From an uncultured Alphaproteobacteria bacterium (GTDB taxonomy: Bacteria > Pseudomonadota > Alphaproteobacteria > RF32 > CAG-239): a DNA stretch of 64,000 nucleotides. This document shows positions 4,096 to 63,792 of this stretch, one piece after another; the stretch's first letter is position 1, and the number at the start of each line of letters is the position of its first letter. The translations under genes and the position numbers were made by a program. The notes under the pieces were generated by a model. It did not search any database, was not told the origin of the DNA, and saw only the letters and a list, made by a program, of their open reading frames with translations. The DNA is taken from positions 67,239-131,238 of the forward strand of contig CALXWE010000001.1 of assembly GCA_944392295.1 (NCBI GenBank), read 5' to 3'.

Positions 4096-5418
4096 ATGCC
4101 CAAACACCCATCTCTTATTTTTTATGAAAAATATTTTCCGCTGCTGGAAATGGATAACGGTAAATACGATACTTTTGTTTTTACCGGCGGTCGCGGCTCA
4201 TTAAAAACCGGGCACGTTTGTCGGGCAGTTTTGGTGGCCATGATGCGCTCTAAAAAACGTGTTGCCGTGTTCAGAGAAACTAAAGTTTCCACCGAAGAAA
4301 GTCTGTATATTGAATTTAAAGAATTAATCAATAGCGAATTTTTTAATCGAGGGTTTGATTATTCTAAAAATAAAATCGTTCATAAATCCACCGGCTCGGA
4401 ATTGTTCTTTATGGGGTTGCAAGATAAAAATCAGAGTGCGCGCGAGAGCCTAAAAGGCTTGGCTCAGGTAGATATTTTATTAATCGACGAAGCCCAAGCC
4501 GTCAGCGCTGCCGTATGGAGCGTACTGTTAAAAACCATACGAAAACAAGGCGTCGTTTTAATTGTTATTTATAACCGTATAGATGACGACTTACCGGTTG
4601 AACAGGCTCTGTTTTTAGATTACGTTTCAATGTCGGCACCCGATAAAACTTATTTTGTAGAGGTAAACTATCCTGAGGTAGAACATTTAGGCGTGTTATC
4701 GGAAAAATTTTTAACCTACGCCGGTTTGATAAAACAAAACAAGCCCGATGAATATGAACGCGATTATCTAAACAAGCCCAAAGGCTCCGATGCCGCCAAA
4801 GTTGTTAAATATTGGTCGCCGGAAAACATTAATCCCGATATTCGCTATTGTGAAGATTTGGATATTTACTGGAGCCTTGATTTTAACGTTAATCCGGCTA
4901 TGTCAACGCTTGCTCATTACGATGGCAAAAAGTTTTTTGTTTTTGATGAATTAGTCTTAAATAATGTTATAACTCAGGACGTCGTCGATGAATTTATGCA
5001 TCGCTATCCGCCGGAAAAGGTTAGGGGAATAATTCAAATTTGCGGTGATGCTTCGGGCAAATATCGCAAGACCCAAAGCCGGTTTTCTGATTATGCCATT
5101 ATTGTTAATACGTTGGCTAAAAACGGGTATCATTATAAACTTAATTTACGTCCATTTAATCCGCCGATTATTGCCAGGGTTAATGCGTTTAACAAACAAG
5201 TTTTAACTGATGACGGTAACAGAAATGTACTGGTTCATCCAAGGTGTAAGTGGCTTATTTATAATATGAAAAATCTGCGTTACAAAGAAGGAACGAATAT
5301 CATCGATGAGGCAACGCCTTCGCAAATTGCTGATGATGACGCCAAACTTTACTTAGGACATATCTTTGATGCCGTAAGCTATATGGTAGAATTTTTTAAA
5401 CCAGTCGTTAAAGAATGA
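4096..5418 (+). CDS. terL: phage terminase large subunit (PBSX/Terminase_3-like)
   Basis: Walker A-like FTGGRGSLKTGH, Walker B VDILLIDEAQ, C-terminal nuclease-like region. Confidence 0.85.
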   Translation: MPKHPSLIFYEKYFPLLEMDNGKYDTFVFTGGRGSLKTGHVCRAVLVAMMRSKKRVAVFRETKVSTEESLYIEFKELINSEFFNRGFDYSKNKIVHKSTGSELFFMGLQDKNQSARESLKGLAQVDILLIDEAQAVSAAVWSVLLKTIRKQGVVLIVIYNRIDDDLPVEQALFLDYVSMSAPDKTYFVEVNYPEVEHLGVLSEKFLTYAGLIKQNKPDEYERDYLNKPKGSDAAKVVKYWSPENINPDIRYCEDLDIYWSLDFNVNPAMSTLAHYDGKKFFVFDELVLNNVITQDVVDEFMHRYPPEKVRGIIQICGDASGKYRKTQSRFSDYAIIVNTLAKNGYHYKLNLRPFNPPIIARVNAFNKQVLTDDGNRNVLVHPRCKWLIYNMKNLRYKEGTNIIDEATPSQIADDDAKLYLGHIFDAVSYMVEFFKPVVKE

Positions 5419-5749: not shown

Positions 5750-6658
5750 ATGAAAATAATTAAATATCTGATTGCGGAACTTTTGTTTATTATCTTAATT
5801 ATCAATAATTACGGTATGTTTGTTAATATGGATAAAGCCGATTTGGTTTGCATTAACGAGGGTATCAACAATTATCTGCAATTTGATTGGAATAGTTATT
5901 TTCATTGGTTCCGAGATGATATAAATACCGTTTGTCGTTTTGATACACAAAGCTTATTTATGTATTTTTGGTTTGTTCTTACTTATTATACCTTATTTAA
6001 AATCATTGCTCTCAAAATCTTCCCTGATAGCTTAAAAATAAAATTTTTGATTCCCGAAACTTTGGTTTACATATTGTCTTTCGGCATACGAATTGTTTGG
6101 ACCGATGGTTTTGAAGTAACATCCGGAAGTCTGCAAAACGCCGCTCTCGGTTTGATGTATATGTTCTCACCGTTCATTGTATATGTTATTATTGTATATT
6201 TAGCATACCACATGGCTGAGACCTATGGCAGGAAAATGCCGCAATCCGTTAAAAACTTATTTTTAAGTATTGGCTTGTTTATTTTTTCGGTAGTGGCATT
6301 TCCGCCGATATGGGCAATACTTTACAGCTTGTTGCTGCTGCCTTTTATTTTATGGTTTATTTACCTTTACATACCCCGACTATTCGTAAAATCTGTTGCC
6401 GATAAACAAACAACTCCTGCCTCTTATTTTTGTCTTAGGTTGCCTGCCGGAATCATCTTGTTTTTGGGATGTATCAGTTATGAAATTTTATTTTCAAGAC
6501 AGTATTACCGAGCTCTGTCTATAGAGGAGTTTTTCGCCTATTATATTTTGTGTACAACCTTTATCCGATTGACCTATTATCTGTTAATTGCTTTAATTTG
6601 GAATCCCAAAGCCGTTAAAAATTTTGTAAATAAACTACATTTAACTCAAAATACCTAG
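5750..6658 (+). CDS. integral membrane protein (multi-TM), cargo gene
   Basis: RBS gaggagg; many hydrophobic segments. Confidence 0.5.
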   Translation: MKIIKYLIAELLFIILIINNYGMFVNMDKADLVCINEGINNYLQFDWNSYFHWFRDDINTVCRFDTQSLFMYFWFVLTYYTLFKIIALKIFPDSLKIKFLIPETLVYILSFGIRIVWTDGFEVTSGSLQNAALGLMYMFSPFIVYVIIVYLAYHMAETYGRKMPQSVKNLFLSIGLFIFSVVAFPPIWAILYSLLLLPFILWFIYLYIPRLFVKSVADKQTTPASYFCLRLPAGIILFLGCISYEILFSRQYYRALSIEEFFAYYILCTTFIRLTYYLLIALIWNPKAVKNFVNKLHLTQNT

Positions 6659-6669
6659 AGCTTGAATAT

Positions 6670-7104
6670 TTATTCAAGCTCTACCACAAAGGTTGCAACC
6701 CCCAATCGTTGCCAATTTTCATCATAGGAATATTCTTTTATGTAGCGGGCGGTACATATCCCTTTGGCATCTTTAAGGAAACATTCTTCCGGTACATATC
6801 TGTAAAACTCGTCACTGCCGAAAATTTGACATTTTAAAATTATATAATCATTTTCATTTTCCAACAGCTGACAAGTATTAGTCGTCCAACCGTCCTTATA
6901 ATTATCGCCGTCTTTATGAATAACCGAGTTGGAGTAGCGTAGGGAATTGGGTGTTAAAAATGTTTCACGCGAATTAGACGATAAAGGAGATAATTGTTTA
7001 TAAAACAACGGATTTACAAATTTTTCTTCCTTCTCACTTCCGGCCCGCAATGAACATCCGACAATAAATAACACGCTTAATATTACCCATAAACTTTTTT
7101 TCAT
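6670..7104 (-). CDS. lipoprotein, Cys-containing, cargo gene
   Basis: Signal peptide with lipobox FIVGC. Confidence 0.5.
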   Translation of the reverse strand: MKKSLWVILSVLFIVGCSLRAGSEKEEKFVNPLFYKQLSPLSSNSRETFLTPNSLRYSNSVIHKDGDNYKDGWTTNTCQLLENENDYIILKCQIFGSDEFYRYVPEECFLKDAKGICTARYIKEYSYDENWQRLGVATFVVELE

Positions 7105-7168
7105 AATCTTATTTCCTTATACTTAATTTCCATAAATAATAATTAATCCCGGCTATTCCGTCAAAGAT

Positions 7169-7657
7169 TTACTTGTAATTTTTAAGAAAGCCATAAACGG
7201 CAAGTTCCTGTTTAATTTGCAATAATAGGGTATTAAGGTATTGCAAAACAATTTCTTTGGATTTTGCCATATTTTCCTGTTCGCATACAGTGCCGGCAGG
7301 AGTTGCATATTTATTTAAGCAATAAACAACCCCATAGGCCGATAATGTGGCTTTAACATAGTTGTTATAACTTGCCATATTACGCTCAAGATTATGATTA
7401 TAAAAAGTTTTCATAACCTTATCGGCAAGAGTGTTGGCACAATCAAATTGTCGAGAGCTTTCGGTACATAAAGATAATTCTTTTTGATATTGTGTGATGA
7501 GGGTGTAGTCATCAATTATATCTTTGATTTTTTCTTTACTGCTCCAATCGCTTTTAGCATACACATCATCTATATCAATACCATGGTAAATTTCCGCATT
7601 AACGTTTGTTGCAGATATTAAAAAGCTCAAAAGAGAAATAATGTATATTTTTTTCAT
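7169..7657 (-). CDS. secreted protein with signal peptide, cargo gene
   Basis: AAGGA RBS 8 nt upstream of ATG at 7657; N-terminal signal peptide ...ATNVNA; four Cys. Confidence 0.5.
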   Translation of the reverse strand: MKKIYIISLLSFLISATNVNAEIYHGIDIDDVYAKSDWSSKEKIKDIIDDYTLITQYQKELSLCTESSRQFDCANTLADKVMKTFYNHNLERNMASYNNYVKATLSAYGVVYCLNKYATPAGTVCEQENMAKSKEIVLQYLNTLLLQIKQELAVYGFLKNYK

Positions 7658-7751
7658 AATCAATTATCCTTATGCATAAAACCGATGAAACAAGTTTAGA
7701 TTTAATCCATAATATAAGCAACAACTTTTATAGTTAAAGCACAAGAAAATA

Positions 7752-7840
7752 ATATTTTAACTTAAACTAAAATTTTAACAACCAATACCGAAGCTCTTTG
7801 CTTCGGTATTTTTTTTATTTAAAAGAAAGGAAAATAAATC
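7752..7840 (+). repeat. cassette element copy B (3' part only: terminator hairpin + conserved RBS leader)
   Basis: ttaacttaaactaaaattttaacaaccaataccgaagctctttgcttcggtattttttttatttaaaagaaaggaaaataaatcATG. Confidence 0.75.
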
Positions 7841-8428
7841 ATGACAAATAAAAAATATAATCCATTTGCGGATATGTATAACTTTAATGCTAACAGTAAC
7901 AACTGGGTACAAAAGCTAGGATATAATGCGGATTTTTATAATAATCCGCTGGGCTATAACAGCTCACCCATCCCCAGACCTTATGATAACACAACAAAAT
8001 TAAATAATAATGTTCCTAAATATTGGGACAGTGCAAATGAGGGTAGAAAAGTTCTTGACTATGTAATACAAAAAGAAGGGAATATTACTCCTGAATCACA
8101 AGATTTTTTTGCATATGGAAAATCTGGTCTGACTGGAGGATTAAACACGATACAGAATTATATGTCTTTAAGAGATAAAAGATATACAGATAAGTACAAG
8201 CACGCACTTATAAATTGTAAGGCAGCTCAATCCGGAAAAGGAGGATACGATATTGTAAAATTTATTTCTGATTTAAAAGAAAAGAGTGATGTTAAAAATG
8301 GTCGCAATACTATTGACAGTAGTTTAAGTGATAACTATGCTAACGAAATAGGACGGCTGTTAGGAACAAAATATCGCAAAGGAGATTGTGATGCTCTCAT
8401 CCAACAATACATTAACAAAAATTGGTAA
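7841..8428 (+). CDS. MTNK-family protein with shared N-terminal module and unique C-terminal domain (candidate toxin/effector)
   Basis: First ~52 aa near-identical to 11801-13084 protein (MTNKKYNPFADMYNFNANSNNWVQKLGYNADFYNNPLGYNSSP.PRPYDNTT). Confidence 0.6.
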   Translation: MTNKKYNPFADMYNFNANSNNWVQKLGYNADFYNNPLGYNSSPIPRPYDNTTKLNNNVPKYWDSANEGRKVLDYVIQKEGNITPESQDFFAYGKSGLTGGLNTIQNYMSLRDKRYTDKYKHALINCKAAQSGKGGYDIVKFISDLKEKSDVKNGRNTIDSSLSDNYANEIGRLLGTKYRKGDCDALIQQYINKNW

Positions 8429-32580: not shown

Positions 32581-32618
32581 AACAACCGCCGCCATTAACT
32601 TGGCGGCGGTTGTTGTTT
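32581..32618. terminator. bidirectional intrinsic terminator between thrS and pilin-like gene
   Basis: aacaaccgccgccattaacttggcggcggttgtt. Confidence 0.65.
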
Positions 32619-33240
32619 ATTTCCATTGGACATAGAGAGCACAGCTTTGCTCATTACAGATGTTGCAAAGAGCATCAAGGTCATTCAATGATATATGACC
32701 TAAACATTTCAAGTTTGCGCCATTACAATATTTATCTCCATATACTGCGCCTTCATTAGTATATTTATCATCATTGGTATATTTTTTTTGAGTAAAGACG
32801 GTATATAAATCGTTACTGTTAGGTTTTACGGCGTTAACAACATTATAACATATTTCTTTTCCCTGAACTGAAGGCTCAAAGCGTAAACCCATTCCGTTAT
32901 TATTTTTGGAAGAATATATCCATACATCATTATTAAATATGTCTTTAAATACGGCAGAATTAGACTTATAAGTTATACCGTCAGGAATCATATTAAGTTT
33001 TTTCAGAATGGATGTATAATAAATTGCCCCATTAGCATCTACAGTATCACCGCTGTCAATTTCATTAACTATCTGCAATGAATTATTAAGAAGTATACTT
33101 ATAGATTCTGCTTGTTTATTGAGCTTATATTTAAACATAGCTTTAGAGTAGCCGGAGAGTGCACCGACGGAAAGTACACCGATGATGGCTAAAACTCCTA
33201 ACATCTCGACCATACTTCTACCCAGTTCATTAAATTTCAT
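32617..33240 (-). CDS. type IV pilin-like protein, paralog 1
   Basis: Prepilin N-terminus MKFNELG|RSMVEMLGVLAIIGVLS (E at +5), C-terminal Cys pair and ...WK end. Confidence 0.75.
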   Translation of the reverse strand: MKFNELGRSMVEMLGVLAIIGVLSVGALSGYSKAMFKYKLNKQAESISILLNNSLQIVNEIDSGDTVDANGAIYYTSILKKLNMIPDGITYKSNSAVFKDIFNNDVWIYSSKNNNGMGLRFEPSVQGKEICYNVVNAVKPNSNDLYTVFTQKKYTNDDKYTNEGAVYGDKYCNGANLKCLGHISLNDLDALCNICNEQSCALYVQWK

Positions 33241-33357: not shown

Positions 33358-33984
33358 CTACTTCCACACTGCATATAATCTGCATCTTGTAGCATCATTA
33401 GCGCAATTATTACATAAGATATCAATATCATTTAATGTCATATCTTTAATACAATTATCCGATGAATTACAATATTTATTACCATAAAATCTTCCCATTA
33501 TTTGAGCATTTTCTTTATCATCAGCAGTAAATTTATCAGAAGACACATAGTACAGAATATCCATATGTTGTTTGTACATATTAAAGAGATTAAAACAAAT
33601 TTCTTTATCATTATTATTAGATGTAAAATTGTATCCTATACCAAAAGCTGTCGGATAAGCATATACCCATATACTATTTCCGAACGGATCTACTAAAATT
33701 TTCGGATTATTTACATCTAATCTGACACCATCAGGAAGAAGTCCTAGTTTATCCATTGTTTGTGCAAGAAACAATGCATCGGTAGTGGACGAAGTGTTAT
33801 TAATCTTAGGCATTAGTTGAAAAGCATTCATAAATAAGAAATTAAAGGCTTCGGCTTGTTTATTTAGCTTATATTTAAACATTGCTTTAGAGTAGCCGGA
33901 AATAGCACCGACGGAAAGTACGCCGATGATGGCTAAAACGCCGAGCATTTCGACCATAGAACGACCAAGTTCATTAAATTTCAT
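33358..33984 (-). CDS. type IV pilin-like protein, paralog 2
   Basis: Same N-terminus; divergent C-terminal domain with Cys-rich tail. Confidence 0.75.
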   Translation of the reverse strand: MKFNELGRSMVEMLGVLAIIGVLSVGAISGYSKAMFKYKLNKQAEAFNFLFMNAFQLMPKINNTSSTTDALFLAQTMDKLGLLPDGVRLDVNNPKILVDPFGNSIWVYAYPTAFGIGYNFTSNNNDKEICFNLFNMYKQHMDILYYVSSDKFTADDKENAQIMGRFYGNKYCNSSDNCIKDMTLNDIDILCNNCANDATRCRLYAVWK

Positions 33985-39775: not shown

Positions 39776-42700
39776 ATGCAAAATCGACGTCCTGTTTTTT
39801 ATATATTTTTAATTTTTTACTTTATTGGTTTTCCATATTCATCATATGCAATTACAACAATAATTGAAGCAGGAGAGACCGTAAACGGCGGAGATGTTAA
39901 TTCCGTTGTTACGCAAAAGGTATACGGAGAAGCCGATAATTTTACGGTATTGGGAACACAGCAGGTTATGAGCGGAGGCATCACAAAGAACAGTAATTTA
40001 TATCCTTACGGTACGCAGGAAGTTATGTCAGGTGGAACATCTTATAATACTAATTTACAGTATTCGTCAGTTCAGAGAATTTACGGCACATCTTACGATA
40101 CCACCATTGCCTCCCGAGCATCGGCTAACGTTTACGGCGGCGGTTTGGCGGAAAGTACGGTTTTAAACGGAGGTTCTTTTTATGTTTTGAGCGGAGGTAC
40201 GGCAGAAAGCAGTACCATTAACTTCGGTCACGGATATGTGTCGGGAACGGATAGTAATACTACGGTTAAGGGCGGAATTTGGGAAATAAGGAGCGGCGGT
40301 AAATCTGATGGGGCTGTTATAAGCGGAGGAGAACAACAGGTAGATTCCGGGGGAAGTGCCACAAATTCCACAATTAACAGCGGAGGATTACAAGAGGTAT
40401 ACGGTACGGCACAGGGGTCCATGGTACAAGGCGGAGTTTTGAAAGTAATAGACAGCGGCAGTATAGAAAACACCACATTAAATAGCGGAAGGATAGATGT
40501 CGGTTCGGGAACATCGGCAACCGGGACCGTGGTAAACGGCGGAACGGAATATGTATACGGAAGCGATACGCAAAGTACCATAAACGGCGGATTACAATAT
40601 GTGGGAAGCAGCGGTACGGTTATGAATGTAATATTGCAGAATCAAGGATCTCAGAGTGTTTACGGTACGGCAAACAATGTAACGGTGCAAAATGGCGGAG
40701 TGCAAAATGTCAGATACGGAGGTGTCAGTAATAATACCACATTGTTAAGCGGTGGGGTACAAAATGTTACGGGCACGGATAACAATGCGGTTATTAACGG
40801 AGGCACGCAGACGGTGGAAAGTGACGGTATAGCCAACGGCACGACATTAAACGGCGGAAACCAAAAGGTATTCGGTACGGTCAATAGTGTTAATATTAAA
40901 GGTGGAATACAGAATATATTAAGCGGCGGTCTGTCAAGCGGAAGTACCGTAAACGGCGGAGAGATGATGGTTGCAAGCGGAGCAACGGCTGAAAATACGG
41001 TCTTAAATACTGGAAGTGAGCTGGTATACGGTACGGATAATAATGCCGTTATTAACGGGGGCACACAGACGATAGAAAACGGCGGTATAGCAAGCGACAC
41101 AACGCTAAACGGCGGCGAGCAGGTAGTATTATCTGGAGCAACGGTAAACAATGCAAGCATCAACGGGGGCACGCAGGAAGTATCGGGCACGGTAAACGGC
41201 ACGAATATCAAAGGCGGAGTGCAGAGTATTTTGAGTGGCGGTGTTGCAAGCGGAAGTACCGTAAACGGCGGAGAGATGATGGTTGCAAGCGGAGCAACGG
41301 CTGAAAATACGGTCTTAAATACTGGAAGTGAGCTGGTATACGGTACGGATAACAATGCGGTTATTAACGGGGGCACGCAGACGATAGAGAGCAGCGGTAT
41401 AGCGAACGGCACAACGCTAAACGGCGGCGAGCAGATAGTATTATCTGGAGCAATAGCTAAAAACAGCAAGTTACAAGGAGGAACTTTAACTTTGTACAGT
41501 GGCGGAAATCTTGAGGGAATAACCAATGTCACCAATGCAGTTATGAATATTTCAGGAAGTAATGATATATCTTCTCTCAATGTTAGCAATTCTCAAATCA
41601 ATTTTTTAAGAGATTCCGGTTTTAGTACTCTTAATATAGAAAACTTAAATGGTAGCGGTACCTTTAATTTAAGTAGTAATTTAGCAGATGATGAGTCGGA
41701 TATTTTAAATATCACCAACGGGAACGGTAATTTTGGTCTGATTATTCACGATTATAGCTATGAAGGAAATTTACCCTCAAGCTTTAAGGTTATTAACGAA
41801 GCTTCAGCCACTGATGATTTTTACTTAATCGGCGGGGCTGTAGACGTAGGAGCATATGAGTATGAATTACAATATGACGGTAATGATTGGGTATTGGTAA
41901 GAACTCCAAATCTTACAGAAAGCGCGATCATTGCCAAAAACACATATACTTCACTTTCATCGGTTTTTTACAGTATGCTGACACCTGTATATAATCGTAT
42001 AAAAAGTAACAGAAGAAATGGCAGCCCTGAACACAATTTATGGTTCAAAGGCATTGGTCATGAAGTTAAGCTCAATTACAAAGATGATACAAAGAGCCGT
42101 TTACAGATTTATGGCGGAGCTTTAGGGTATGATAAGAATATTTGGCAAAGTGGCGGCAATAGCTTAAAATTAGGATTTTTTGGCAGTTATGCTTATTCCC
42201 ATCAAGATTACGATCGTCAAGGTCGAGGTCATGCCGATACGCAAAACTTTGGCTTATATGCCGGAATATTGACTAATAATAATTGGTTTTTAGATATCGC
42301 GGGCACCTATTTTATGCATGATCAAAGAGTACAAAGTTATACTCCGGCCATGTATGAAGTTATCGGAAAGTATAACACCAACGGCTGGCACGGAGCTGTA
42401 TTTATAGGTCGCAGAGTTGACCTTGCCAAAGATTGGTATATTGAGCCTAATTTAGGTTTTAACTACATTCATGTTGAGGGTATTGATTACCGAACCAATT
42501 TCAACACCTTAGTAACGGCCGATGATATGGATTACATGAATGCTCAAATAGGTAGTAATATTGGCAAGGGAGTAGAATTGGCGGAAGATACTAAGCTTAA
42601 TATTTTCGGAAGCTTTAATCTGATACATGATTGGGACGGAAAAAGTACGGTTCAAGTAGCAAACTACACATTTAATGAGGACATATCTTCGGTGCGCTAT

Positions 42701-42829
42701 GAACTGGGAATTGGTCTGGAAGCAATAAAAACAGATAAGGGCAATGCATACATAGAAGCAACCACCCAACTAGGCAATCGTGTCAAGATGCCCTGGGAGA
42801 TAAATTTAGGTGTAAGTTTTGCTTTTTAA
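39776..42829 (+). CDS. autotransporter with repetitive passenger domain and C-terminal beta-barrel
   Basis: Signal peptide; ~19-aa GG..V.G repeats; C-terminal ...GVSFAF terminal aromatic. Confidence 0.8.
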   Translation: MQNRRPVFYIFLIFYFIGFPYSSYAITTIIEAGETVNGGDVNSVVTQKVYGEADNFTVLGTQQVMSGGITKNSNLYPYGTQEVMSGGTSYNTNLQYSSVQRIYGTSYDTTIASRASANVYGGGLAESTVLNGGSFYVLSGGTAESSTINFGHGYVSGTDSNTTVKGGIWEIRSGGKSDGAVISGGEQQVDSGGSATNSTINSGGLQEVYGTAQGSMVQGGVLKVIDSGSIENTTLNSGRIDVGSGTSATGTVVNGGTEYVYGSDTQSTINGGLQYVGSSGTVMNVILQNQGSQSVYGTANNVTVQNGGVQNVRYGGVSNNTTLLSGGVQNVTGTDNNAVINGGTQTVESDGIANGTTLNGGNQKVFGTVNSVNIKGGIQNILSGGLSSGSTVNGGEMMVASGATAENTVLNTGSELVYGTDNNAVINGGTQTIENGGIASDTTLNGGEQVVLSGATVNNASINGGTQEVSGTVNGTNIKGGVQSILSGGVASGSTVNGGEMMVASGATAENTVLNTGSELVYGTDNNAVINGGTQTIESSGIANGTTLNGGEQIVLSGAIAKNSKLQGGTLTLYSGGNLEGITNVTNAVMNISGSNDISSLNVSNSQINFLRDSGFSTLNIENLNGSGTFNLSSNLADDESDILNITNGNGNFGLIIHDYSYEGNLPSSFKVINEASATDDFYLIGGAVDVGAYEYELQYDGNDWVLVRTPNLTESAIIAKNTYTSLSSVFYSMLTPVYNRIKSNRRNGSPEHNLWFKGIGHEVKLNYKDDTKSRLQIYGGALGYDKNIWQSGGNSLKLGFFGSYAYSHQDYDRQGRGHADTQNFGLYAGILTNNNWFLDIAGTYFMHDQRVQSYTPAMYEVIGKYNTNGWHGAVFIGRRVDLAKDWYIEPNLGFNYIHVEGIDYRTNFNTLVTADDMDYMNAQIGSNIGKGVELAEDTKLNIFGSFNLIHDWDGKSTVQVANYTFNEDISSVRYELGIGLEAIKTDKGNAYIEATTQLGNRVKMPWEINLGVSFAF

Positions 42830-45440: not shown

Positions 45441-46055
45441 TTATCTGAAGGTAATGTATAATAAACATTGAGAAGATTCGCAAAAGCTACATCTATCATA
45501 AATATCGCTTATTTGCATATCTTTAAGACATACTACATTTTTTGTGCACCCAACATCTCCATATATGCGTGTAGACCATTCGTTATCTTTATCATCATAG
45601 TCGTTTCTAAAAAAAATAGTGCTAATGGCGCTATGATTTTCTTTGGCGGTAGTTATAATGTTTATACACTGTTCCATAGAAGAGTGAGAAGCATCAATAT
45701 AATATATAATTCCCAAATAGTTTGTCTCGTGGTAGTAGATACTCATTTCCGTTTTAAAAACATCAGATATTCGGCTTAAATTTGAAGTAAGCATGTCCTC
45801 AGGTATTTCGCCCAATTTATTAAGGTAAGGTATCAGGTTATTTTGTCCGCTAGCTGCTCCTGTTTTTATCCGTAAGTCATTTAGGTATCTAATACAAGCA
45901 TTGATAATGGTGTTGGCTTGTTCAGCCTGTTTATTAAGTTTATACTTCATCATAGCTTTAGAGTATCCGGAGATAGCACCGACGGAAAGAACGCCGATAA
46001 TGGCAAGAACGCCGAGCATTTCGACCATAGAGCGCCCAAGTTGATTAAATTTCAT
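45441..46055 (-). CDS. type IV pilin-like protein, paralog 3
   Basis: MKFNQLGRSMVEMLGVLAIIGVLSVGAISGYSKAMMKYKLNKQAE. Confidence 0.75.
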   Translation of the reverse strand: MKFNQLGRSMVEMLGVLAIIGVLSVGAISGYSKAMMKYKLNKQAEQANTIINACIRYLNDLRIKTGAASGQNNLIPYLNKLGEIPEDMLTSNLSRISDVFKTEMSIYYHETNYLGIIYYIDASHSSMEQCINIITTAKENHSAISTIFFRNDYDDKDNEWSTRIYGDVGCTKNVVCLKDMQISDIYDRCSFCESSQCLLYITFR

Positions 46056-48304: not shown

Positions 48305-48916
48305 TTATCGCCAAATGATATATAAGCCCCACCATGTGGTATCTTCATTAAATATGCTGCACAGCTCTTCGGCTTTGGCAAGAGTTAAATTGCGCAAACA
48401 TTTATCTTCGGAACTACAATACTTATCACCCCGCAGGCCTGATGCCAATAATTGAGGGCCGTCAGTTATATAATTTAGGAAAATGGAATTTATATCGGCA
48501 TGAAATTCTTTGGCAATCATATATAGATTGCGGCATTGGGTGGTGTTTCCGGCAGAATCTAAATTGACATTAATACCTACATATCCGGTATTGTGATGAT
48601 ATATCCAGTAGCGATTCTTGAACACATCCTCAATTTGATCTTCCACGTTGGCAATATACATCTCTTTGGGGATCTCATTTAGTTTTTTCAAAATAGGGAT
48701 TAAACTGAAAGCATCGGTGGAACCGTCGTTAATCATTAAATCTTTATAATAACGGGCAACGGTACTGATAATAGTATTTATTTGCTCGGTCTGCTTGTTG
48801 AGTTTGTACTTAAACATCGCCTTCGAGTAACCGGCAATCGCGCCGACGTAAAGTACCCCGATAATCGCCAGCACGCCCAGCATCTCAACCATAGAACGCC
48901 CTCTTTCTTGCATCAA
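48305..48916 (-). CDS. type IV pilin-like protein, paralog 4 (variant N-terminus MMQERG|RSMVEML)
   Basis: Same hydrophobic N-domain. Confidence 0.7.
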   Translation of the reverse strand: MMQERGRSMVEMLGVLAIIGVLYVGAIAGYSKAMFKYKLNKQTEQINTIISTVARYYKDLMINDGSTDAFSLIPILKKLNEIPKEMYIANVEDQIEDVFKNRYWIYHHNTGYVGINVNLDSAGNTTQCRNLYMIAKEFHADINSIFLNYITDGPQLLASGLRGDKYCSSEDKCLRNLTLAKAEELCSIFNEDTTWWGLYIIWR

Positions 48917-54318: not shown

Positions 54319-54957
54319 TTAAATCCACAAGATGTTAATCCATGAACGTTTACCATCTAAATCGGCACATATATCACCGATTTTAGTTAAGGTTAAATCT
54401 CTTAAACATGAATTTTTAGATGTGTTGCAATACTTATCGCCGTAATACTCATATAGGGAACCGCCGTTACCTACCTGAGGCGTAACTTTCCATAAATCGG
54501 CGTGCATTTGCTGTACAACGGTTAAAATATTTTGGCATGAGTTGAAATCAACATACGAGTTAGCAATTATATTGTTATCGTGTTCAACAGTAAGCCGAAA
54601 ATAACCATCGCCATAAGCATTTCCCTCTCTAACCCAATATAGTAGTATTAAATTGCCCATAGCATCTTCAAATCCCTGATTTCTATACACCTCATTAGCA
54701 GGAATAAGCCCTAGCTTGTACATAACAGGAACTAAATATGTAAAAGAAGAACTAACATTTTGTGCATTAAATTCAGGGCGATTATACAACTCGAAGGCAT
54801 TATATATAAGGGTTGATATTTGCTCGGCTTGTTTATTAAGTTTATACTTCATCATTGCCTTTGAGTAGCCGGAAATGGCGCCGATAGATAAAACGCCAAT
54901 GATAGCAAGAACGCCGAGCATTTCGACCATAGACCGCCCAAGTTGACTAAATTTCAT
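54319..54957 (-). CDS. type IV pilin-like protein, paralog 5
   Basis: MKFSQLGRSMVEMLGVLAIIGVLSIGAISGYSKAMMKYKLNKQAE. Confidence 0.75.
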   Translation of the reverse strand: MKFSQLGRSMVEMLGVLAIIGVLSIGAISGYSKAMMKYKLNKQAEQISTLIYNAFELYNRPEFNAQNVSSSFTYLVPVMYKLGLIPANEVYRNQGFEDAMGNLILLYWVREGNAYGDGYFRLTVEHDNNIIANSYVDFNSCQNILTVVQQMHADLWKVTPQVGNGGSLYEYYGDKYCNTSKNSCLRDLTLTKIGDICADLDGKRSWINILWI

Positions 54958-57194: not shown

Positions 57195-57800
57195 TTATTT
57201 TATTCTCAATTTTAGATGAGAATCTTCTTTATTAATATGTTCAGCACATAAATTATCTATTTCAGACATGGTTAAATCAACTAAGCATTTACTGTTGTTT
57301 GTACAGTATTTATCGCCATAGACATTACTAATTGCTTCATCTTCATTTCCATAGTTACTAAGAGAAGATACGACATAAATATCTTCATGAAACTCTTTCA
57401 CAATAGTAAAAAATTGACGACATACAGTCAGAGATTGGTCTGAATTATCAATTTTTAACAAACAATAAAGAGTGTCTCCGGTACTTTCAGAAGTTATTTG
57501 TACTTTATTTCCAAAAATATCGTAAACATAACTGTTGTCATTTTTAATCATTTCTGTTGGAATTAGATTTAATTTTATATAAGTACCAGTTATATCATAA
57601 TATTTTCCTGATGGGGTGATTTTTCCCACATATTCAACCATTGATGCAATAATTTGCCGATACTGTGCTGACATTTTATTTAGCTTATATTTCATCATTG
57701 CCTTGTTATAGCCGGAGATAGCACCTACTGATAATACTCCGATAATTGCGAGTACTCCTAACATCTCGACCATAGAGCGTCCAAGTTGATTAAATTTCAT
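57195..57800 (-). CDS. type IV pilin-like protein, paralog 6
   Basis: Same N-terminus. Confidence 0.75.
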   Translation of the reverse strand: MKFNQLGRSMVEMLGVLAIIGVLSVGAISGYNKAMMKYKLNKMSAQYRQIIASMVEYVGKITPSGKYYDITGTYIKLNLIPTEMIKNDNSYVYDIFGNKVQITSESTGDTLYCLLKIDNSDQSLTVCRQFFTIVKEFHEDIYVVSSLSNYGNEDEAISNVYGDKYCTNNSKCLVDLTMSEIDNLCAEHINKEDSHLKLRIK

Positions 57801-57958: not shown

Positions 57959-59428
57959 TTACATTAATTTCATCAGTTCGTTAAATAATCGAACGCCAAA
58001 ACCGCTGGCTCCTTTAGGATTAAGCGGCTTTACTTTTTCTATTTTATCCATACCAGCAATGTCCAGGTGCGCCCATTTAATATTTTTATCAATAAAGCGC
58101 TGCAAGAAACAAGCTGCGGTAATTGAGCCGGCATTACGACCTTCGCTGATGTTTTTCATATCGGCAATGCTGGAATCCATCATTTTATCATATTCTTTGG
58201 TTATAGGTAATTGCCAAACTTTTTCATCAACGTTACTTCCGGCTTTGGCAACCAAATCGACAAACTTTTGGTTGTTACCCATAATACCGGCCATTTCGGT
58301 ACCCAAAGCGACCATAATTGCGCCGGTTAAAGTAGCAATATCTACCACATTTTTAACACCGAATTGTTTTTGAATATACCATAAGCAATCAGCCAATACC
58401 AACCGACCTTCGGCATCGGTATTTAATATTTCAACAGTTTGTCCTGACATTGAACGAACGATATCACCGGGGCGGGTGGCTGAGCCCGAGGGCATATTTT
58501 CAACCAAACCGACAACGGCGGCAACATTAATCGGCAATTTTTGTAAAGCTGCGGCTTTCATGGCACCGACAACGGCGGCGGCACCAGCCATATCCTGCTT
58601 CATATCCCACATACCGCTTCCGGGCTTAAGAGATATACCGCCGCTGTCAAACGTAACGCCTTTACCTACCAAGCCCAAAACAAACTCTTTACTTTGAGGG
58701 TTGCCTTGCCAGGTAATTACTGCGATGCGTGGCGGATTATTTGAGCCTTGAGCAACAGATAAAGCCAAATTAAATTCTTTTTCTTTCATGGCTTTTTCAT
58801 CTAAAATTTCAACTTTCAATCCCAAATATTCCAGACGTTTAATATCTTCGGCCATAATTGCCGGCGTCATATTATTTGCCGGTTCATTGGTCAAATCGCG
58901 TGTATAACGTACGGCATTGGCAAGAGCGGCAAAAGGAGTATAGCCGTCTTTAGAAATTACTTTACCGTCAGCGGCAAAAGCCACACTCTCAAGTTTAGGA
59001 AATTCTTCGGGTTTACGCTTGGTTAAATATTTATCAAACCTATAAGAAGATAACTCTAAGCCAAAAGCTATATTATAAGCAATTTCGGCGGTTTTAAGCT
59101 TGCAGCTTGTCGGTTTTGCAGCATAGACCACTGCCGATTGATACTTTTTGATGTAGTGATACAAATTTCCGCCCAATTTTTGCAGTTCAATTTTATCGGG
59201 GTTAAGAGCGCAACCTAAAAGCACAATTTTATTTTCAGCGGTAGCCGTGATAACAGCTTGCCCAAATTTAGGTTTAAAATTTTCACGATCAGCAATCTTG
59301 ACAAGGAGTTTAATTTCATCTTGGCTCAAAAACTTTGCCATATATTTTTTATCGAGTTTGCCACAAGCAAGAACAACCTTTACTTGATTGGGGCGTGGTT
59401 TTTTATTACTAAATACAATTTCCACCAT
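57959..59428 (-). CDS. pepA: leucyl aminopeptidase (M17)
   Basis: NTDAEGRLVLADCLWY signature. Confidence 0.9.
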   Translation of the reverse strand: MVEIVFSNKKPRPNQVKVVLACGKLDKKYMAKFLSQDEIKLLVKIADRENFKPKFGQAVITATAENKIVLLGCALNPDKIELQKLGGNLYHYIKKYQSAVVYAAKPTSCKLKTAEIAYNIAFGLELSSYRFDKYLTKRKPEEFPKLESVAFAADGKVISKDGYTPFAALANAVRYTRDLTNEPANNMTPAIMAEDIKRLEYLGLKVEILDEKAMKEKEFNLALSVAQGSNNPPRIAVITWQGNPQSKEFVLGLVGKGVTFDSGGISLKPGSGMWDMKQDMAGAAAVVGAMKAAALQKLPINVAAVVGLVENMPSGSATRPGDIVRSMSGQTVEILNTDAEGRLVLADCLWYIQKQFGVKNVVDIATLTGAIMVALGTEMAGIMGNNQKFVDLVAKAGSNVDEKVWQLPITKEYDKMMDSSIADMKNISEGRNAGSITAACFLQRFIDKNIKWAHLDIAGMDKIEKVKPLNPKGASGFGVRLFNELMKLM

Positions 59429-59564
59429 TTTATCCTCCTAAATTAATACTGCTTTAAAATATAATCACAAAAAATAAAAAAATGCTAAATATTTTAAAAT
59501 AAGCATAGACAAATAAGATTTTATATTTTACACTTTAGACAAAACAATAAAAAAGGTTGTAACA

Positions 59565-61133
59565 ATGGCAGAAAAAGGCAGCAAATACGCAAGAAAGCAT
59601 CAACAAATCGTAGAAATAGATGATGACGATTACCAAACAGAATCTTTAGAAGATGATAGCTTTTTAGGAGTTATTTATGATGATGTAACTTTTTTAAGAA
59701 CATTTCAAAAGCTAACGTTAACCGAACAGATTAAGGCGTACAGAACATTAAAACGCTTAGCCGAACCCAAAAGTAACAAAAAGATAAGTCCCTCGGATAG
59801 GCTTTTAGCGCAAACATCAAAATACAAACTTGAGCAGATAAATTTGGCAGCCGGACTACGTTTGGAAGAAAGACAGCATTATGCCTTAAGTGCCGATGAG
59901 CTACATATTATACGTATGGATTGTTATGGCTCGGTAGATGAGCGTCCGCAGCATCAACTTAGTACATATTATCGCGAATTTTTGAAAAATAAGTTACCAA
60001 AGCAAAGTCCTTTTAAGGCGTATGATTTAGATAAAGCCCCGGCTTGGCAGTTATTTCGTCAGTTCCGAAATTTCAGAAAAATTGAAAGGTCGGTTAAACA
60101 ATATCTTGTAAAATCTCGTTTAAATCCCGAAGCACTAAAGGTTATGGGAGTACGCGATTTTTCCGATGTGATTTTCAAAGCGTTTGCCGATAAGTCGAAA
60201 AACGGAAAATCTTTTTTCTTAAAAGGAGATGCTCCGCGTAATGCCTTTGTTAAAAAAGTTTCTAAAAAATTTGAGAGTAAAATCGGTCAATTACTTCGTC
60301 AAGAACATTTAGATGAAAGATATATAAGGTCATTATTAAGCGCCATGCAAACCTTTGGCACTACGGATGCCGAAAAGATTATAATTACGGAAATATATTT
60401 TACGCCGCGTATTTTAAAAGATATGGCTAAGGCCCGTATGGATCATCGGCAATATCATGTAGGAGATGAAATTCCGCCGGCACTTATCAAATCATTAATG
60501 AAGGCAGATAAAGGCTCTATTTTGGCGGCACGAGACGAAGCGGGCAATTTATTGTCGAGCAGTAATTTCCCGTCTTTTGAAGTCCATCATAAAACGGCAG
60601 TGTTAGAAAGCGGAAGTCTGGCATTTATAGCTATGGTCAACTACGAAAACAATTATGTTTTGGTTCCGGCTGATGTCCATCGCCACGTTTTGCACGGCTT
60701 TGATAGGTTAACCAGTGCCGCACATAAAGAAGCGTACCACCGCCGGCTTGAATTTATAGATAAAAATGCCACTTTTATGTCAGGTTTATCTGAAGACAAA
60801 CAGATTTATTTCGATTGGACTAAACGTCCTTCTTACAAAGAGCATCTAAAAGAAGATTCCCAGTATATAGTTTCTTATGATGAGGTTATGGGAAAATTAG
60901 CGCTTAATCGTCAAGAATATATGGAAGGCAGTAAAAGCGTTGAGTTTGATGTAGACAGCGTAGTTCAGGTTATACGTCATAAGCGAGGCATCACCAGCGA
61001 TGAATTGCTTAAAAAGCGCAAGATTAATCGGTTAGAAAAAAACAATAAGCAGGCCATAGCAAAGATTTCGGAAGACAAGATTAATCAGACACTGTCAAAA
61101 TACATCAAGTCGCAAAAATCACGCAAAAAATAA
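59565..61133 (+). CDS. large hypothetical protein with C-terminal HNH/AHH-like His-Me finger motif (candidate nuclease toxin/effector)
   Basis: EVHHK...NNYVLVPADVHRHVLHG resembles HH-N-H arrangement; followed by SUKH immunity-like gene. Confidence 0.4.
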   Translation: MAEKGSKYARKHQQIVEIDDDDYQTESLEDDSFLGVIYDDVTFLRTFQKLTLTEQIKAYRTLKRLAEPKSNKKISPSDRLLAQTSKYKLEQINLAAGLRLEERQHYALSADELHIIRMDCYGSVDERPQHQLSTYYREFLKNKLPKQSPFKAYDLDKAPAWQLFRQFRNFRKIERSVKQYLVKSRLNPEALKVMGVRDFSDVIFKAFADKSKNGKSFFLKGDAPRNAFVKKVSKKFESKIGQLLRQEHLDERYIRSLLSAMQTFGTTDAEKIIITEIYFTPRILKDMAKARMDHRQYHVGDEIPPALIKSLMKADKGSILAARDEAGNLLSSSNFPSFEVHHKTAVLESGSLAFIAMVNYENNYVLVPADVHRHVLHGFDRLTSAAHKEAYHRRLEFIDKNATFMSGLSEDKQIYFDWTKRPSYKEHLKEDSQYIVSYDEVMGKLALNRQEYMEGSKSVEFDVDSVVQVIRHKRGITSDELLKKRKINRLEKNNKQAIAKISEDKINQTLSKYIKSQKSRKK

Positions 61134-61148
61134 CGGGAAAGTAATGTC

Positions 61149-61571
61149 ATGGATAAAATATTATCACTATTGTCCGGCAGTCAGAGTAGATTAAAGTTAG
61201 GAGCTCCGCTTAACGCTAAAGATGTAATTAGTGTTCAAAAAGCACTGACCAGGGAGGGCTTGCCGATTTTGCCGCCTGATTTTATCAATTTTTTAAGACA
61301 TTATAACGGGGTTAAAAGTCAAGATTCGCAAATTTTGGGCATTGCGCCGGTAGCAGACGGGCAAGATGACATAGTATCCTTTAATGATGAGTATAATCAG
61401 TCGCCGGATATGGTGATTTTGGGCTATGATGATTTTGGTTATTTAGTTTATAACACTTCAACAAAAACCTATCAGTTAGTTGACAAAGAGGGCGGTATGG
61501 TGATAGAAGAGTTTTTTGAAGATGAACTGGAATATGCATTGATAAGTGTTATACATGTTAACTGCGAATAA
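61149..61571 (+). CDS. SUKH (Smi1/Knr4)-family immunity protein
   Basis: LPILPPDFINFLRHYNGV and MVILGYDDFGYLVYN motifs typical of SMI1/KNR4. Confidence 0.65.
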   Translation: MDKILSLLSGSQSRLKLGAPLNAKDVISVQKALTREGLPILPPDFINFLRHYNGVKSQDSQILGIAPVADGQDDIVSFNDEYNQSPDMVILGYDDFGYLVYNTSTKTYQLVDKEGGMVIEEFFEDELEYALISVIHVNCE

Positions 61572-62517
61572 AAACAATATATATAAAAACACGCCGGAAA
61601 ACATAGATTACGCAGCTTCCGTAATTAAGAAGGGCGGTCTTGTTGCGTTTCCGACGGAAACGGTTTACGGGCTTGGTGCAAATGTTTACGATGCCAAAGC
61701 GGTAGCCTCGATTTTTGCGGCAAAAGGACGTCCGTCGTTTAATCCGTTAATTTCGCATATTGCGGAAAAAGATTTTGTAAAAGAATATGCCAAAGTCGAT
61801 GAGCGGGTTTTAGCTTTAGCCGATAAGTTTTGGCCCGGTCCTTTAACATTTGTTTTAAACCGTATAGATGATAATCCGGCGCTTGATTTAGCCTGTGCCG
61901 GTTTAAGGACGGTAACGGTACGTATGCCCAATCACCCGGTAGCATTAAGCCTTATTAAAAAGAGCGGGGTGCCGATTGTGGCGCCTTCTGCCAACAAGTC
62001 GCAGACCATAAGCCCGACTACGGCGCAACACGTTGCCGACAGTTTAGGCGATAAGGTCGATGTTATCATTGACGGAGGAGCCTGCAAGGTAGGTGTAGAA
62101 TCAACCATTATCGATGTTACGGGCAAAAATGTTGTTTTGTTAAGAGCAGGGGGTATTGCTCTGGAAGATTTAGAGGCTTTTTTGGGTGAAAAAGTGCTTA
62201 TTTCTCACGGCAATCCCGATTTACCGACATCTCCCGGGCAAATGTTAAAGCACTATGCACCGTCTCATGAGCTGCGTATTAACGCTCAAAGCCGTAATGC
62301 CGATGAGTTTTTTATAGGCTTTGGCGATGTAAAGGATTGTGATTTGAATTTAAGTCCGAGCGGAGATTTATGTGAGGCGGCGGCAAACTTGTTTGCTTAT
62401 ATGCGTTTGGCAGATTCGCAAGACAAATATCCAAAGTTGGCTATGTCGCCGATACCCGAAAGAGGGTTGGGATTGGCCATTAATGACAGAATCCGCCGTG
62501 CCGCATATAAAAAGTAA
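61555..62517 (+). CDS. tsaC: L-threonylcarbamoyladenylate synthase (Sua5/YrdC family, long form)
   Basis: GGLVAFPTETVYGLGA motif; C-terminal Sua5 domain. Confidence 0.85.
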   Translation: MLTANKNNIYKNTPENIDYAASVIKKGGLVAFPTETVYGLGANVYDAKAVASIFAAKGRPSFNPLISHIAEKDFVKEYAKVDERVLALADKFWPGPLTFVLNRIDDNPALDLACAGLRTVTVRMPNHPVALSLIKKSGVPIVAPSANKSQTISPTTAQHVADSLGDKVDVIIDGGACKVGVESTIIDVTGKNVVLLRAGGIALEDLEAFLGEKVLISHGNPDLPTSPGQMLKHYAPSHELRINAQSRNADEFFIGFGDVKDCDLNLSPSGDLCEAAANLFAYMRLADSQDKYPKLAMSPIPERGLGLAINDRIRRAAYKK

Positions 62518-62582: not shown

Positions 62583-63734
62583 ATGCTAAAAGACACAAAT
62601 AAATGTAAATGTGATAAAGATTGCAAGTGCGGCTGCCAAGAAGGCAAAGAGTGCACCTGCGGTTGTGATAAAGATTGCAAGTGCGGTTGCCAAGAAGGTA
62701 AAGAATGTACTTGCGGATGCGATAAAGATTGCAAGTGCGGTTGCCAAGAAGGTAAAGAATGTACTTGCGGATGCGATAAAGATTGCAAGTGCGGCTGCCA
62801 AGAAGGCAAAGAGTGCACCTGCGGTTGTGATAAAGATTGCAAGTGCGGCTGCCAAGAGGGAAAAGAATGCACCTGTGGTTGCGGTAAAGATTGCAAGTGC
62901 GGTTGCCAAGAAGGTAAAGAATGTACTTGCGGATGCGATAAAGATTGCAAGTGCGGTTGCCGGGAAGGCAAAGAATGTACTTGCGGCTGTGGCAAGGATT
63001 GCAAATGCGGTTGTGGCCGTGGCAAAAAAGTTGTCAGTGCCGCAATGTTGGCTTTTGGTTTGGTGCTTGGCGGATTTTTCCCCGGATACTACTATTACCA
63101 TGCTAAAATGGATGCCAACAGTGTTGTAGTTAAAGGTTTGGCCGAAATGGACGTTAAGGCCGACTTAGCTATCTGGAATATCAAATTTGTTGTAACCGGC
63201 GATGATGTAATCAAAGCTCAACAAGATATGGAAAAGCAAAAAACAGTTGTGCAAGATTTTTTAATCAAGAATAACATTAAAGCCGAAGAAATCAGCGTTG
63301 GAAGGCTGGAAACCAACGATTTAATGGCTAATCCGTATCGCAGCAACAACGATAACAATGTTCGTTTTATTTTAACGCAAAACATAACCGTAAAATCGGC
63401 AAATGTTGATAACATTGCCAAAGTGCTTAATAAATCCGGCGATTTAGTGGCTCAAGGCGTGATATTCAATCAAGATTACGGTTACCCGGTATCATATTTA
63501 TTTACGGGTTTAAATAACATTAAGCCGCAAATGCTTGCCGAAGCTACCAAAAACGCCAAAGAGGCAGCTGAAGAGTTTGCCAAAAATTCCGGCAGCAAAG
63601 TCGGAAAAATTCGCCATGCCAATCAGGGGGTATTTTCAATTTTGCCGCGAGAGCAGAGTGCCTATGCCTCAGAGATGCAAGAGATTGAAAAGAAGGTAAG
63701 AGTAGTATCCACGATTGAATACTGGTTGGAATAA
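62583..63734 (+). CDS. membrane-anchored SIMPL-domain (DUF541/YggE-like) protein with N-terminal metallothionein-like Cys-rich tandem repeats
   Basis: ~7.5 copies of CDKDCKCGCQEGKECTCG, then TM (MLAFGLVLGGFF), then ~220-aa SIMPL-like domain. Confidence 0.65.
   Translation: MLKDTNKCKCDKDCKCGCQEGKECTCGCDKDCKCGCQEGKECTCGCDKDCKCGCQEGKECTCGCDKDCKCGCQEGKECTCGCDKDCKCGCQEGKECTCGCGKDCKCGCQEGKECTCGCDKDCKCGCREGKECTCGCGKDCKCGCGRGKKVVSAAMLAFGLVLGGFFPGYYYYHAKMDANSVVVKGLAEMDVKADLAIWNIKFVVTGDDVIKAQQDMEKQKTVVQDFLIKNNIKAEEISVGRLETNDLMANPYRSNNDNNVRFILTQNITVKSANVDNIAKVLNKSGDLVAQGVIFNQDYGYPVSYLFTGLNNIKPQMLAEATKNAKEAAEEFAKNSGSKVGKIRHANQGVFSILPREQSAYASEMQEIEKKVRVVSTIEYWLE
62608..63030 (+). repeat. 54-bp tandem repeat array (~7.5 units) in coding sequence
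   Basis: Near-perfect 54-nt units encoding 18-aa Cys-rich repeat; all six frames lack stops here. Confidence 0.8.
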
Positions 63735-63792
63735 GATAATTAATCAGTCAATTATAAATATAAGACCGCCGTCATAGATGGCGGTCTTTATT

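Follow-up and report, generated by a model that had tools for sequence, protein, structure and literature searches.

Among the textbook weapons that bacteria use against one another are HNH toxins encoded together with SUKH immunity proteins, which are mobile, polymorphic, and fast-evolving. A pair of genes in a 64,000-nucleotide stretch of DNA from an uncultured Alphaproteobacteria bacterium (contig CALXWE010000001.1; the whole stretch is referred to here as the window) raises the question of whether such a pair still serves as a weapon or has been turned into a component of the cell that encodes it. We refer to the upstream gene and its product as X, and to the product of the downstream gene as the partner. 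A first-pass annotation of the window had described the two as an HNH/AHH-like nuclease toxin with a SUKH (Smi1/Knr4) immunity protein. Both open reading frames (ORFs) are present in the window translation, at 59565-61133 (+ strand, 522 aa) and 61149-61571 (+ strand, 140 aa), and the motifs that were quoted for them, LPPDFINFLRHYNG, VILGYDDFGYLVYN, EVHHK, and NNYVLVPADVHRHVLHG, are all found in the translations.

The comparisons described below make it very probable that X and its partner combine an HNH nuclease domain with a SUKH/YrhA-type protein of toxin-immunity ancestry. These components, the HNH toxin domain and the SUKH/YrhA immunity protein, are known. What is new is an N-terminal domain that comes without a delivery module, and a fixed core locus that is under housekeeping-level constraint and occasionally loses the partner. 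Our favored explanation, to which we assign a probability of roughly 45%, is that the pair is a domesticated, partner-regulated intracellular nuclease that arose from a captured toxin-immunity cassette.

A predicted HNH domain of the YhhZ type in X

X itself matches no Pfam or NCBIfam family by direct scan, and phmmer and profile searches with X against Protein Data Bank (PDB) sequences returned only noise, as did those with the partner. The proposal that the C-terminal third of X is an HNH/His-Me finger domain is nevertheless borne out by motif conservation, by a predicted beta-beta-alpha core, and by profile comparison. Among 63 full-length members of the family, for which overall identity drops below 30%, residues H341, H342, A345, N359, H377, and D380 are kept in at least 97% and N363 in 92%, while H372 is conserved save for small alignment shifts. 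Of the 173 representatives with a length of 330 aa or more, 153 pass a loose [HD]H...N...N...H...H pattern, and most of the failures that we inspected have only longer inserts or a diverged Asn position. Together with the profile match described below, these features greatly exceed what chance would produce. Since such conservation across a diverged family is hard to explain otherwise, catalysis by X is likely. The distance from EVHHK to NNYVLV is 18 residues (344-361), and not the 14-residue spacer of the first-pass annotation.

In the AlphaFold2 model of X (pLDDT, the predicted local distance difference test score, is 85.7), DSSP assigns a strand at residues 338-342 (FEVHH), a second strand at 364-368 (YVLVP), and a helix at 369-376 (ADVHRHVLH). 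The same strand/strand/helix elements are seen in a model of the trimmed region, and the core of X is thus predicted to have a beta-beta-alpha-metal arrangement.

When 38 family sub-sequences were compared with Pfam, HNH and Col-Pyo_DNase were the most recurrent matches, both of them weak: the best E value of the HNH model for any X member is only 0.11, and Col-Pyo_DNase matches 3 of the 38. A stronger link, to the C-terminal domain of E. coli YhhZ, was found via the YrhA family to which the partner gene is related. YhhZ itself matches Pfam HNH at residues 322-343 (E 0.005). We collected 65 relatives of its C-terminal domain and aligned 30 of them (alignment A5) for profile comparison. Using hhalign, the HNH region of X (alignment A3) matches this family over 66 columns (96.1%, E 3.5e-9), and the HHK, the two Asn residues, and the helix His of X are paired with invariant positions of the YhhZ family. 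With the full-length X alignment, the match spans X residues 271-419 (70%, E 3.9e-5). On the basis of these profiles and models, we assign residues ~271-420 of X as a putative HNH/His-Me finger domain of the YhhZ type.

The narrower AHH label (PF14412) did not hold up. This model matches neither X nor the 38 region sub-sequences even at E values up to 10, a single distant member (P0134) reaches an E value of 0.059, which is below the cut-off, and the motif reads V-H-H-K as it does in the YhhZ family. We also do not claim a specific relationship to colicin DNases; an hhalign comparison with a colicin E9 DNase sequence left the motif unaligned.

The partner and its coupling to X

The NCBIfam model NF038335 (YrhA family) matches the window partner with an E value of 4.8e-12 (46 bits), and it matches 38 of 39 members of the partner family with a best E value of 5.2e-20. 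The Pfam models SUKH_6, SMI1_KNR4, and SUKH_5 match 18, 7, and 4 of the 39 members, respectively, at E values up to 0.01. The window partner lies below the curated cut-offs, with 46 versus 55 bits for NF038335 and 21.8 versus 25.4 bits for SMI1_KNR4 (E 3.1e-4). The match to the SMI1/KNR4 family first proposed for it is significant but falls short of the gathering score. By sequence, the partner appears to be a divergent relative of the SUKH superfamily that is nearest to the YrhA family, and not a curated member of it. Comparison of the partner profile (alignment A2) with solved structures found no SUKH structure by sequence. The wider proposal, that a SUKH-kind immunity protein is encoded downstream of X, agrees with the breadth of the NF038335 matches and with the presence of partner homologs after HNH toxins in Listeria and Clostridium.

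Conserved acidic motifs of the partner include YDDF and LEEY, and the two proteins contrast in charge, with isoelectric points (pI) of ~9 for X and ~4.7 for the partner. The spacer between the two genes is 15 nt in the window. In 26 of 53 loci there is no spacer, and the stop codon of X runs into the start codon of the partner with an overlap of 4 nt or 1 nt. The next gene, tsaC/sua5, starts at 61546 or at an ATG at 61555, and so overlaps the 3' end of the partner gene. No terminator-like site lies between X, the partner, and sua5; the earliest is at 63762-63788, past a SIMPL gene. The partner gene and tsaC/sua5 are probably co-transcribed.

A new N-terminal domain in a family of gut bacteria

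A search for relatives of X yielded 57 full-length proteins of 32-99% identity, none of which is named or has a Pfam domain. An exhaustive profile search yielded 169 representative clusters, likewise full length, and a scan of one genome per species found X in 71 species. Nearly all carriers are labeled as uncultured gut or rumen Alphaproteobacteria, such as Candidatus Scatocola faecigallinarum, and come from humans, ruminants, rabbits, and chickens; a few X-bearing bins carry other taxon labels.

The N-terminal ~270 residues of X have no Pfam, NCBIfam, PADLOC, or PHROG family match in any clade and no fold match in the PDB, and they are the best-conserved part of the protein in distant relatives (profile positions 80-270). 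They constitute a new domain, which we refer to as the N-domain. X begins with a conserved, basic stretch of 12 residues (MAEKGSKYARKH), and distant members likewise begin with a basic MAxK/R-rich peptide. The acidic N-terminus that had been reported is thus correct for a run at residues ~16-35, which has a net charge of -9, and incorrect for the first 12 residues. At the other end of the protein, basic R/G-rich C-terminal tails recur among distant members. Some lineages encode much larger X proteins (960-1032 aa in L071-L074, 813 aa at L063:5668-8109, and 570-640 aa in L055-L070). The additional length comes from large insertions or from C-terminal extensions of low complexity that are rich in Lys, and in L063 such an extension sits where the missing partner gene would be.

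The X locus behaves like part of the core genome

The gene order pepA (- strand), X, partner, sua5 is observed in essentially every locus that is long enough to show it, in ~70 species of gut Alphaproteobacteria. The same order is found for the distant members P0110 (399 aa), P0093 (437 aa), and P0213 (351 aa). In one further locus (L084; P0106, 383 aa), recJ takes the place of pepA upstream, and the order of X, partner, and sua5 is kept. Except in L079 and L083, sua5 is found downstream of X wherever a locus reaches beyond X. The identities of X and partner to the window copies correlate with those of PepA and Sua5, with Spearman rho values of 0.65-0.89. Among closely related loci, the ratio of nonsynonymous to synonymous substitution rates (dN/dS) is 0.11 for X, 0.11 for the partner, 0.09 for PepA, and 0.03 for Sua5. 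Within X, the tail is under the weakest constraint, with a ratio of 0.21 as compared with 0.10 in the HNH domain and 0.07 in the N-domain. X proteins of identical sequence were found in dozens of samples.

We found no match to X on plasmids, phages, or IMG/VR viral contigs. There is no toxin-domain swapping, in that every clade with the N-domain keeps the same HNH module, and there are no orphan toxin or immunity cassettes, each locus and each window having a single X and a single partner. Known trafficking or secretion domains (Hcp/VgrG/PAAR, Rhs, LXG/WXG, or those of contact-dependent inhibition (CDI) and two-partner secretion) are absent from X in every clade. X also has no signal peptide, its N-terminus being charged and non-hydrophobic, and on this point the first-pass annotation was correct. 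No type VI, type IV, or type VII secretion system (T6SS, T4SS, T7SS) genes were recognized in the 64-kb window, in which an autotransporter, pilin-like genes, and a phage terminase were seen. When held against the features by which polymorphic toxin systems are recognized (Zhang et al. 2012, PMC3482391), the X pair has no trafficking module of a recognized type, no polymorphism or orphan cassettes, and no patchy, mobile distribution, and in these respects it does not behave as such a system. A search of a literature library for vertically fixed polymorphic-toxin pairs gave no direct precedent.

We used a mirror-tree analysis to compare the divergence of the partner with that of each part of X (partial-Mantel, 49 taxa, with Sua5 and PepA distances controlled). 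After this control, the residual divergence of the partner follows that of the N-domain (r 0.52, p 0.0005) and not that of the HNH domain (r 0.08, p 0.07), a comparison that is exploratory in view of the saturated distances. A partner that engages the N-domain, and does not plug the active site, would fit this hint.

Absence of a nearby partner and linkage to tRNA-modification genes

In four lineages (L063, L079, L081, and L083), a six-frame hmmsearch with filters off detected no partner-like or fused partner ORF within 10-14 kb, and in all four the HH...N...H...H motif of X is intact. In L081 and L063, sua5 comes directly after X; in L081 (5001-7087) the two genes overlap by 4 nt. Because L081 keeps X next to sua5 without a partner, the linkage of X to sua5 outlasts its linkage to the partner. 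In L083 (5001-12027), X adjoins adk-secY, and tsaD is 4 kb away; Bundlin/PilS-like genes also lie beside this distant homolog. The persistent adjacency of X to genes of the threonylcarbamoyladenosine (t6A) pathway may be a coincidence, or it may reflect a functional link to tRNA modification. In L079 (GCA_965350415.1), a 639-aa X homolog at 6001-7920 lies between the ATP synthase operon and clpB, with no partner nearby. The genome of this lineage also encodes a large ankyrin/MORN-repeat protein, and the lineage may be host-associated.

Interpretation of the X-partner pair

We lean towards domestication because of the vertical, core-like, non-polymorphic behavior of the pair and because some lineages lack a nearby partner. 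According to this explanation, a single capture event would have placed a toxin-immunity cassette between pepA and tsaC in an early member of what is now a large clade of gut Alphaproteobacteria. The cassette would have been fused to, or have evolved with, the new ~270-residue N-terminal domain, and would thereafter have been inherited vertically under housekeeping-level purifying selection. X would be a metal-dependent nuclease. By analogy with other HNH enzymes that have an HH dyad, in which the first His is a metal ligand and the second a general base (PMC9424270), H341, H372, and H377 would be the metal ligands and H342 the general base, with N359 and N363 bracing the hairpin. The acidic YrhA/SUKH-like partner, which would share a transcript with X and be closely coupled to it in translation, would bind X one-to-one and restrain it in the cytoplasm of the producer, while the N-domain and basic tails would choose a defined nucleic-acid substrate inside the cell. 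A more specific version, which we put forward only tentatively, is that of a domesticated, core tsaC-linked system in which the N-domain targets an endogenous substrate and the former immunity protein has become a regulatory subunit that sits on the N-domain. If true, this would be a bacterial counterpart of the SUKH domains that have been recruited to cellular functions in eukaryotes.

Several points weigh against domestication. No cellular substrate or pathway can be named, and we infer both the nuclease activity of X and its binding by the partner. The partner-less genomes were inspected over 10-14 kb each, and a partner may be encoded elsewhere in them. The mirror-tree link to the N-domain is a poor fit to a simple model in which the partner plugs the active site. 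Real antibacterial toxin-immunity modules, namely those of T6SS (Hcp-fused YhhZ) and T7SS (LXG/WXG100), contain homologs of both components. Moreover, a long N-terminal extension followed by a C-terminal toxin domain and then by an immunity gene directly downstream is the layout of polymorphic toxins, and X and its partner evolve about two times faster than their neighbors (39-41% versus 60-76% identity).

The last three of these points, together with the basic charge of X and the acidic charge of the partner, are also what a classical antibacterial toxin-immunity pair would look like. In such a pair, X would be exported to competitors by a route with an undescribed recognition domain, the N-domain and N-terminal peptide being the delivery module, and the partner would protect the producer and its kin. 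The positively charged C-terminal tail of X resembles that of some T4SS substrates, and the Hcp-ET1 HNH-DNase is reported to be an antibacterial toxin delivered by T6SS (PMC6730261, PMC5714182). We regard this explanation, the main one of the first-pass annotation, as a serious rival that is less likely than domestication, and the contact-dependent toxin of that annotation is not supported: Hcp, Rhs, PAAR, LXG, CDI, and signal-peptide domains are all missing from X, the window has no genes for T6SS, T7SS, or T4SS, and neither domain swapping nor orphan cassettes are seen. Strict vertical synteny, a dN/dS of ~0.1, identical sequences across many samples, and the absence of a nearby partner in four lineages with an intact catalytic motif likewise do not suit a weapon. 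The same annotation had suggested a host-directed effector of an intracellular bacterium. X would then be translocated into eukaryotic cells, and its basic N- and C-terminal tails would act as signals that resemble those for nuclear localization. Apart from these tails, this idea can draw on the very distant homolog in L079, whose genome encodes ankyrin- and MORN-repeat proteins. It is extremely improbable, however, given that the relatives are free gut and rumen metagenome-assembled genomes (MAGs) of Alphaproteobacteria from many hosts with no sign of an intracellular lifestyle, that the window genes are ordinary envelope, pilus-like, and metabolic genes with no type III secretion system or T4SS seen among them, and that an immunity-type partner points to a target in the bacterial cytoplasm.

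A role in defense against phage or other foreign DNA might take one of two forms, namely abortive infection upon release of the HNH domain from a SUKH-like inhibitor, or McrA-like, modification-dependent restriction with the N-domain as sensor. A sensing N-terminal domain followed by a C-terminal HNH domain is the usual layout of type IV restriction enzymes, and a toxin held by an inhibitor is common abortive-infection logic. However, no PADLOC defense model is matched, the HNH domain of X is specifically closest to those of polymorphic toxins, and defense genes are normally patchy and mobile, whereas the X pair is fixed at a core locus in ~70 species under housekeeping-like constraint; a defense role is thus improbable. 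More improbable still is that X is no longer a nuclease and that its HNH-like module is a structural or nucleic-acid-binding remnant in a non-catalytic complex, in the manner of Syd and SecY. There are SUKH proteins with non-immunity roles, Syd among them (PMC3113570), the His-Me finger superfamily includes inactivated members (PMC5714182), and divergence of the partner tracks the N-domain and not the HNH domain. A remnant would nevertheless not be expected to keep every canonical catalytic and metal-binding position in at least 92% of members at a family identity of less than 30%, nor to have a dN/dS of 0.10 in the HNH domain.

If the pair is domesticated, it clearly exemplifies how a toxin and its immunity protein can become an enzyme and its regulator within the cell, and it would provide a function for ~170 clusters of "hypothetical proteins". 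If it is still a weapon, it defines a new delivery domain, and does so in gut bacteria that are abundant but uncultured.

Features of the locus and its surroundings

The features of the X locus are listed in Table 1. The promoter-like site upstream of X came from a consensus scan that is no richer in such sites than shuffled sequences, so that a promoter at this position is putative.

Table 1. Coordinates of X, its parts, and the flanking genes in the window.
Feature	Position	Strand	Details
Gene X	59565..61133	+	522 aa; basic N-terminal peptide, acidic linker, novel helical N-domain, putative YhhZ-type HNH domain, basic helical tail
Conserved basic N-terminal peptide MAxKGSKYARKH, residues 1-12	59565..59600	+	alignment consensus; net charge +3
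Novel N-domain, residues ~31-265, mostly alpha-helical	59655..60359	+	conserved IRMDxYG, W161, FRxFxxFRKIE, and DFSD motifs
Putative YhhZ-CT-type HNH (His-Me finger) nuclease domain, residues ~271-420	60375..60824	+	
Predicted catalytic beta-beta-alpha core FEVHHK...VNYENNYVLVPADVHRHVLHGFD, residues 338-380	60576..60704	+	H341, H342, N359, N363, H372, H377, D380
C-terminal long predicted helix and Lys/Arg-rich tail, residues 463-522, and stop codon	60951..61133	+	DSSP helix 463-521; net charge +12
Partner gene, 140 aa, acidic (pI 4.35), SUKH-superfamily YrhA-like	61149..61571	+	NF038335, Pfam SUKH models
tsaC/sua5, threonylcarbamoyl-AMP synthase	61546..62517	+	Pfam Sua5_yciO_yrdC 7.5e-58 and Sua5_C
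pepA, M17 leucyl aminopeptidase; divergent, conserved upstream neighbor	57959..59428	-	Pfam Peptidase_M17 6e-124
AT-rich pepA/X divergent intergenic region; promoter-like site 59506-59534	59429..59564	.	sequence, consensus scan

Downstream of sua5, a gene for a SIMPL/DUF541 protein (62583-63734, +) contains an N-terminal array at 62609-63013 in which a Cys-rich and seemingly metal-binding unit of 54 nt (18 aa), CDKDCKCGCQEGKECTCG, occurs 7.5 times. The ortholog in L003 has only 280 aa as compared with 383 aa in the window, and the array may be a recent expansion. Six paralogous genes of ~200 aa, all on the - strand (57195-57800, 54319-54957, 48305-48916, 45441-46055, 33358-33984, and 32617-33240), are dispersed among housekeeping genes such as recA and dnaK; their products have a prepilin-type N-terminus (MKF.QLGRSMVEMLGVLAIIGVLS) and weak PilS and N_methyl matches. 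The Bundlin/PilS-like genes beside X in L083 are similar to them. Among the window ORFs scanned, a 1017-aa autotransporter (39776-42829, +) with AIDA, Pertactin, and Autotransporter beta-domain matches is the only gene recognized as secretion-related. The large subunit of a phage terminase is encoded at 4096-5418 (+; Terminase_3, E 2.5e-19). Many ORFs on the same strand come after it in succession, three of which were scanned and had no Pfam match, which suggests that the window from ~1 to 24000 is a prophage or gene-transfer-agent-like region. In a goat-rumen MAG (L001:1977-3002), a Zeta_toxin/AAA_33 gene with a small upstream ORF lies a few kb from the X locus, and these two genes may be an unrelated toxin-antitoxin pair.

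Comparison with known systems

Barnase-barstar and NucA-NuiA of Anabaena are vertically inherited nuclease-inhibitor pairs, the nucleases of which have signal peptides and are secreted. The X pair resembles them in concept only, as a dangerous nuclease held with an acidic intracellular inhibitor in a stable chromosomal pair; the inhibitor folds are unrelated, and X has no signal peptide.

Nuclease toxins associated with SUKH proteins in general have been described by Zhang, Iyer & Aravind (2011, PMC3113570). X shares with these toxins (colicin/pyocin-type HNH, WHH, LHH, and AHH) the arrangement of an HNH-fold nuclease that adjoins a SUKH gene. It differs from them in that the AHH, WHH, LHH, and Colicin-DNase Pfam models do not match it, in that it has no PT-VENN, HINT, Rhs, or filamentous-hemagglutinin pre-toxin modules, and in that its locus has no tandem arrays of SUKH paralogs. 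Tox-REHH/RehhI is a deeply divergent HNH DNase with an unfamiliar scaffold that is neutralized by acidic immunity proteins, including SUKH-type ones (bioRxiv 10.64898/2026.09.22.753552). As with X, a divergent HNH domain is combined with an acidic partner, and Tox-REHH provides a model for how an acidic partner could block a basic active site. Unlike X, it is a swapped C-terminal domain of secreted toxins. We rejected Tox-REHH as the family of X; its R46, H52, E53, H102, and H121 do not correspond to H341, H342, N359, N363, H372, and H377 of X, and the spacing also differs.

Close relatives are found in T7SS loci. In Listeria rocourtiae (L085), a YhhZ-type HNH gene follows an LXG ORF, and in Clostridium kluyveri (L086), one lies in a WXG100/SUKH/Imm70 island. 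In each case, the HNH gene is followed by a gene of 143-150 aa that matches the hidden Markov model of the partner family over its full length (E 3.5e-13 and 1.6e-11, respectively). These loci and the window pair thus have the same toxin-domain family and the same immunity family directly downstream. In contrast, the T7SS loci have delivery domains and lie in islands with other immunity genes (SUKH, Imm70), and the window locus has neither.

A close parallel is the yhhZ-yrhA pair of E. coli K-12. Here yrhA follows yhhZ immediately, the two genes share 4 nt, and yrhA is split by IS1E. YhhZ carries the annotation "putative endonuclease YhhZ", combines an Hcp domain at its N-terminus with an HNH match at its C-terminus, and is placed in group 32 of the His-Me finger classification (PMC5714182). 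We describe it as Hcp-ET1-type, after the HNH-DNase that has been reported as a T6SS-delivered antibacterial toxin (reviewed in PMC6730261; PMC5714182), and we do not assume that YhhZ and Hcp-ET1 are the same protein. YhhZ and X have homologous HNH domains with a common VHHK...N.F.NL.L...PYH signature. Likewise, their downstream partners come from the same YrhA-like family, and in both pairs the toxin gene comes first and the partner gene second, with stop and start codons that overlap or closely abut. The two pairs differ in that YhhZ has a T6SS_HCP domain (PF05638, E 1.6e-11) and X has none, in that X adds the novel 270-residue N-domain and the basic helical tail, and in that the last metal ligand is predicted to be His (H377) in X and Asn in the YhhZ family. 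They also differ in setting: the core locus of X is fixed and vertically inherited, whereas the surroundings of yhhZ-yrhA are variable and its yrhA is broken in K-12. Because both components of the X pair are homologous to both components of this recurrent HNH and YrhA-like module, their sequences argue that the pair descends from a polymorphic toxin-immunity module.

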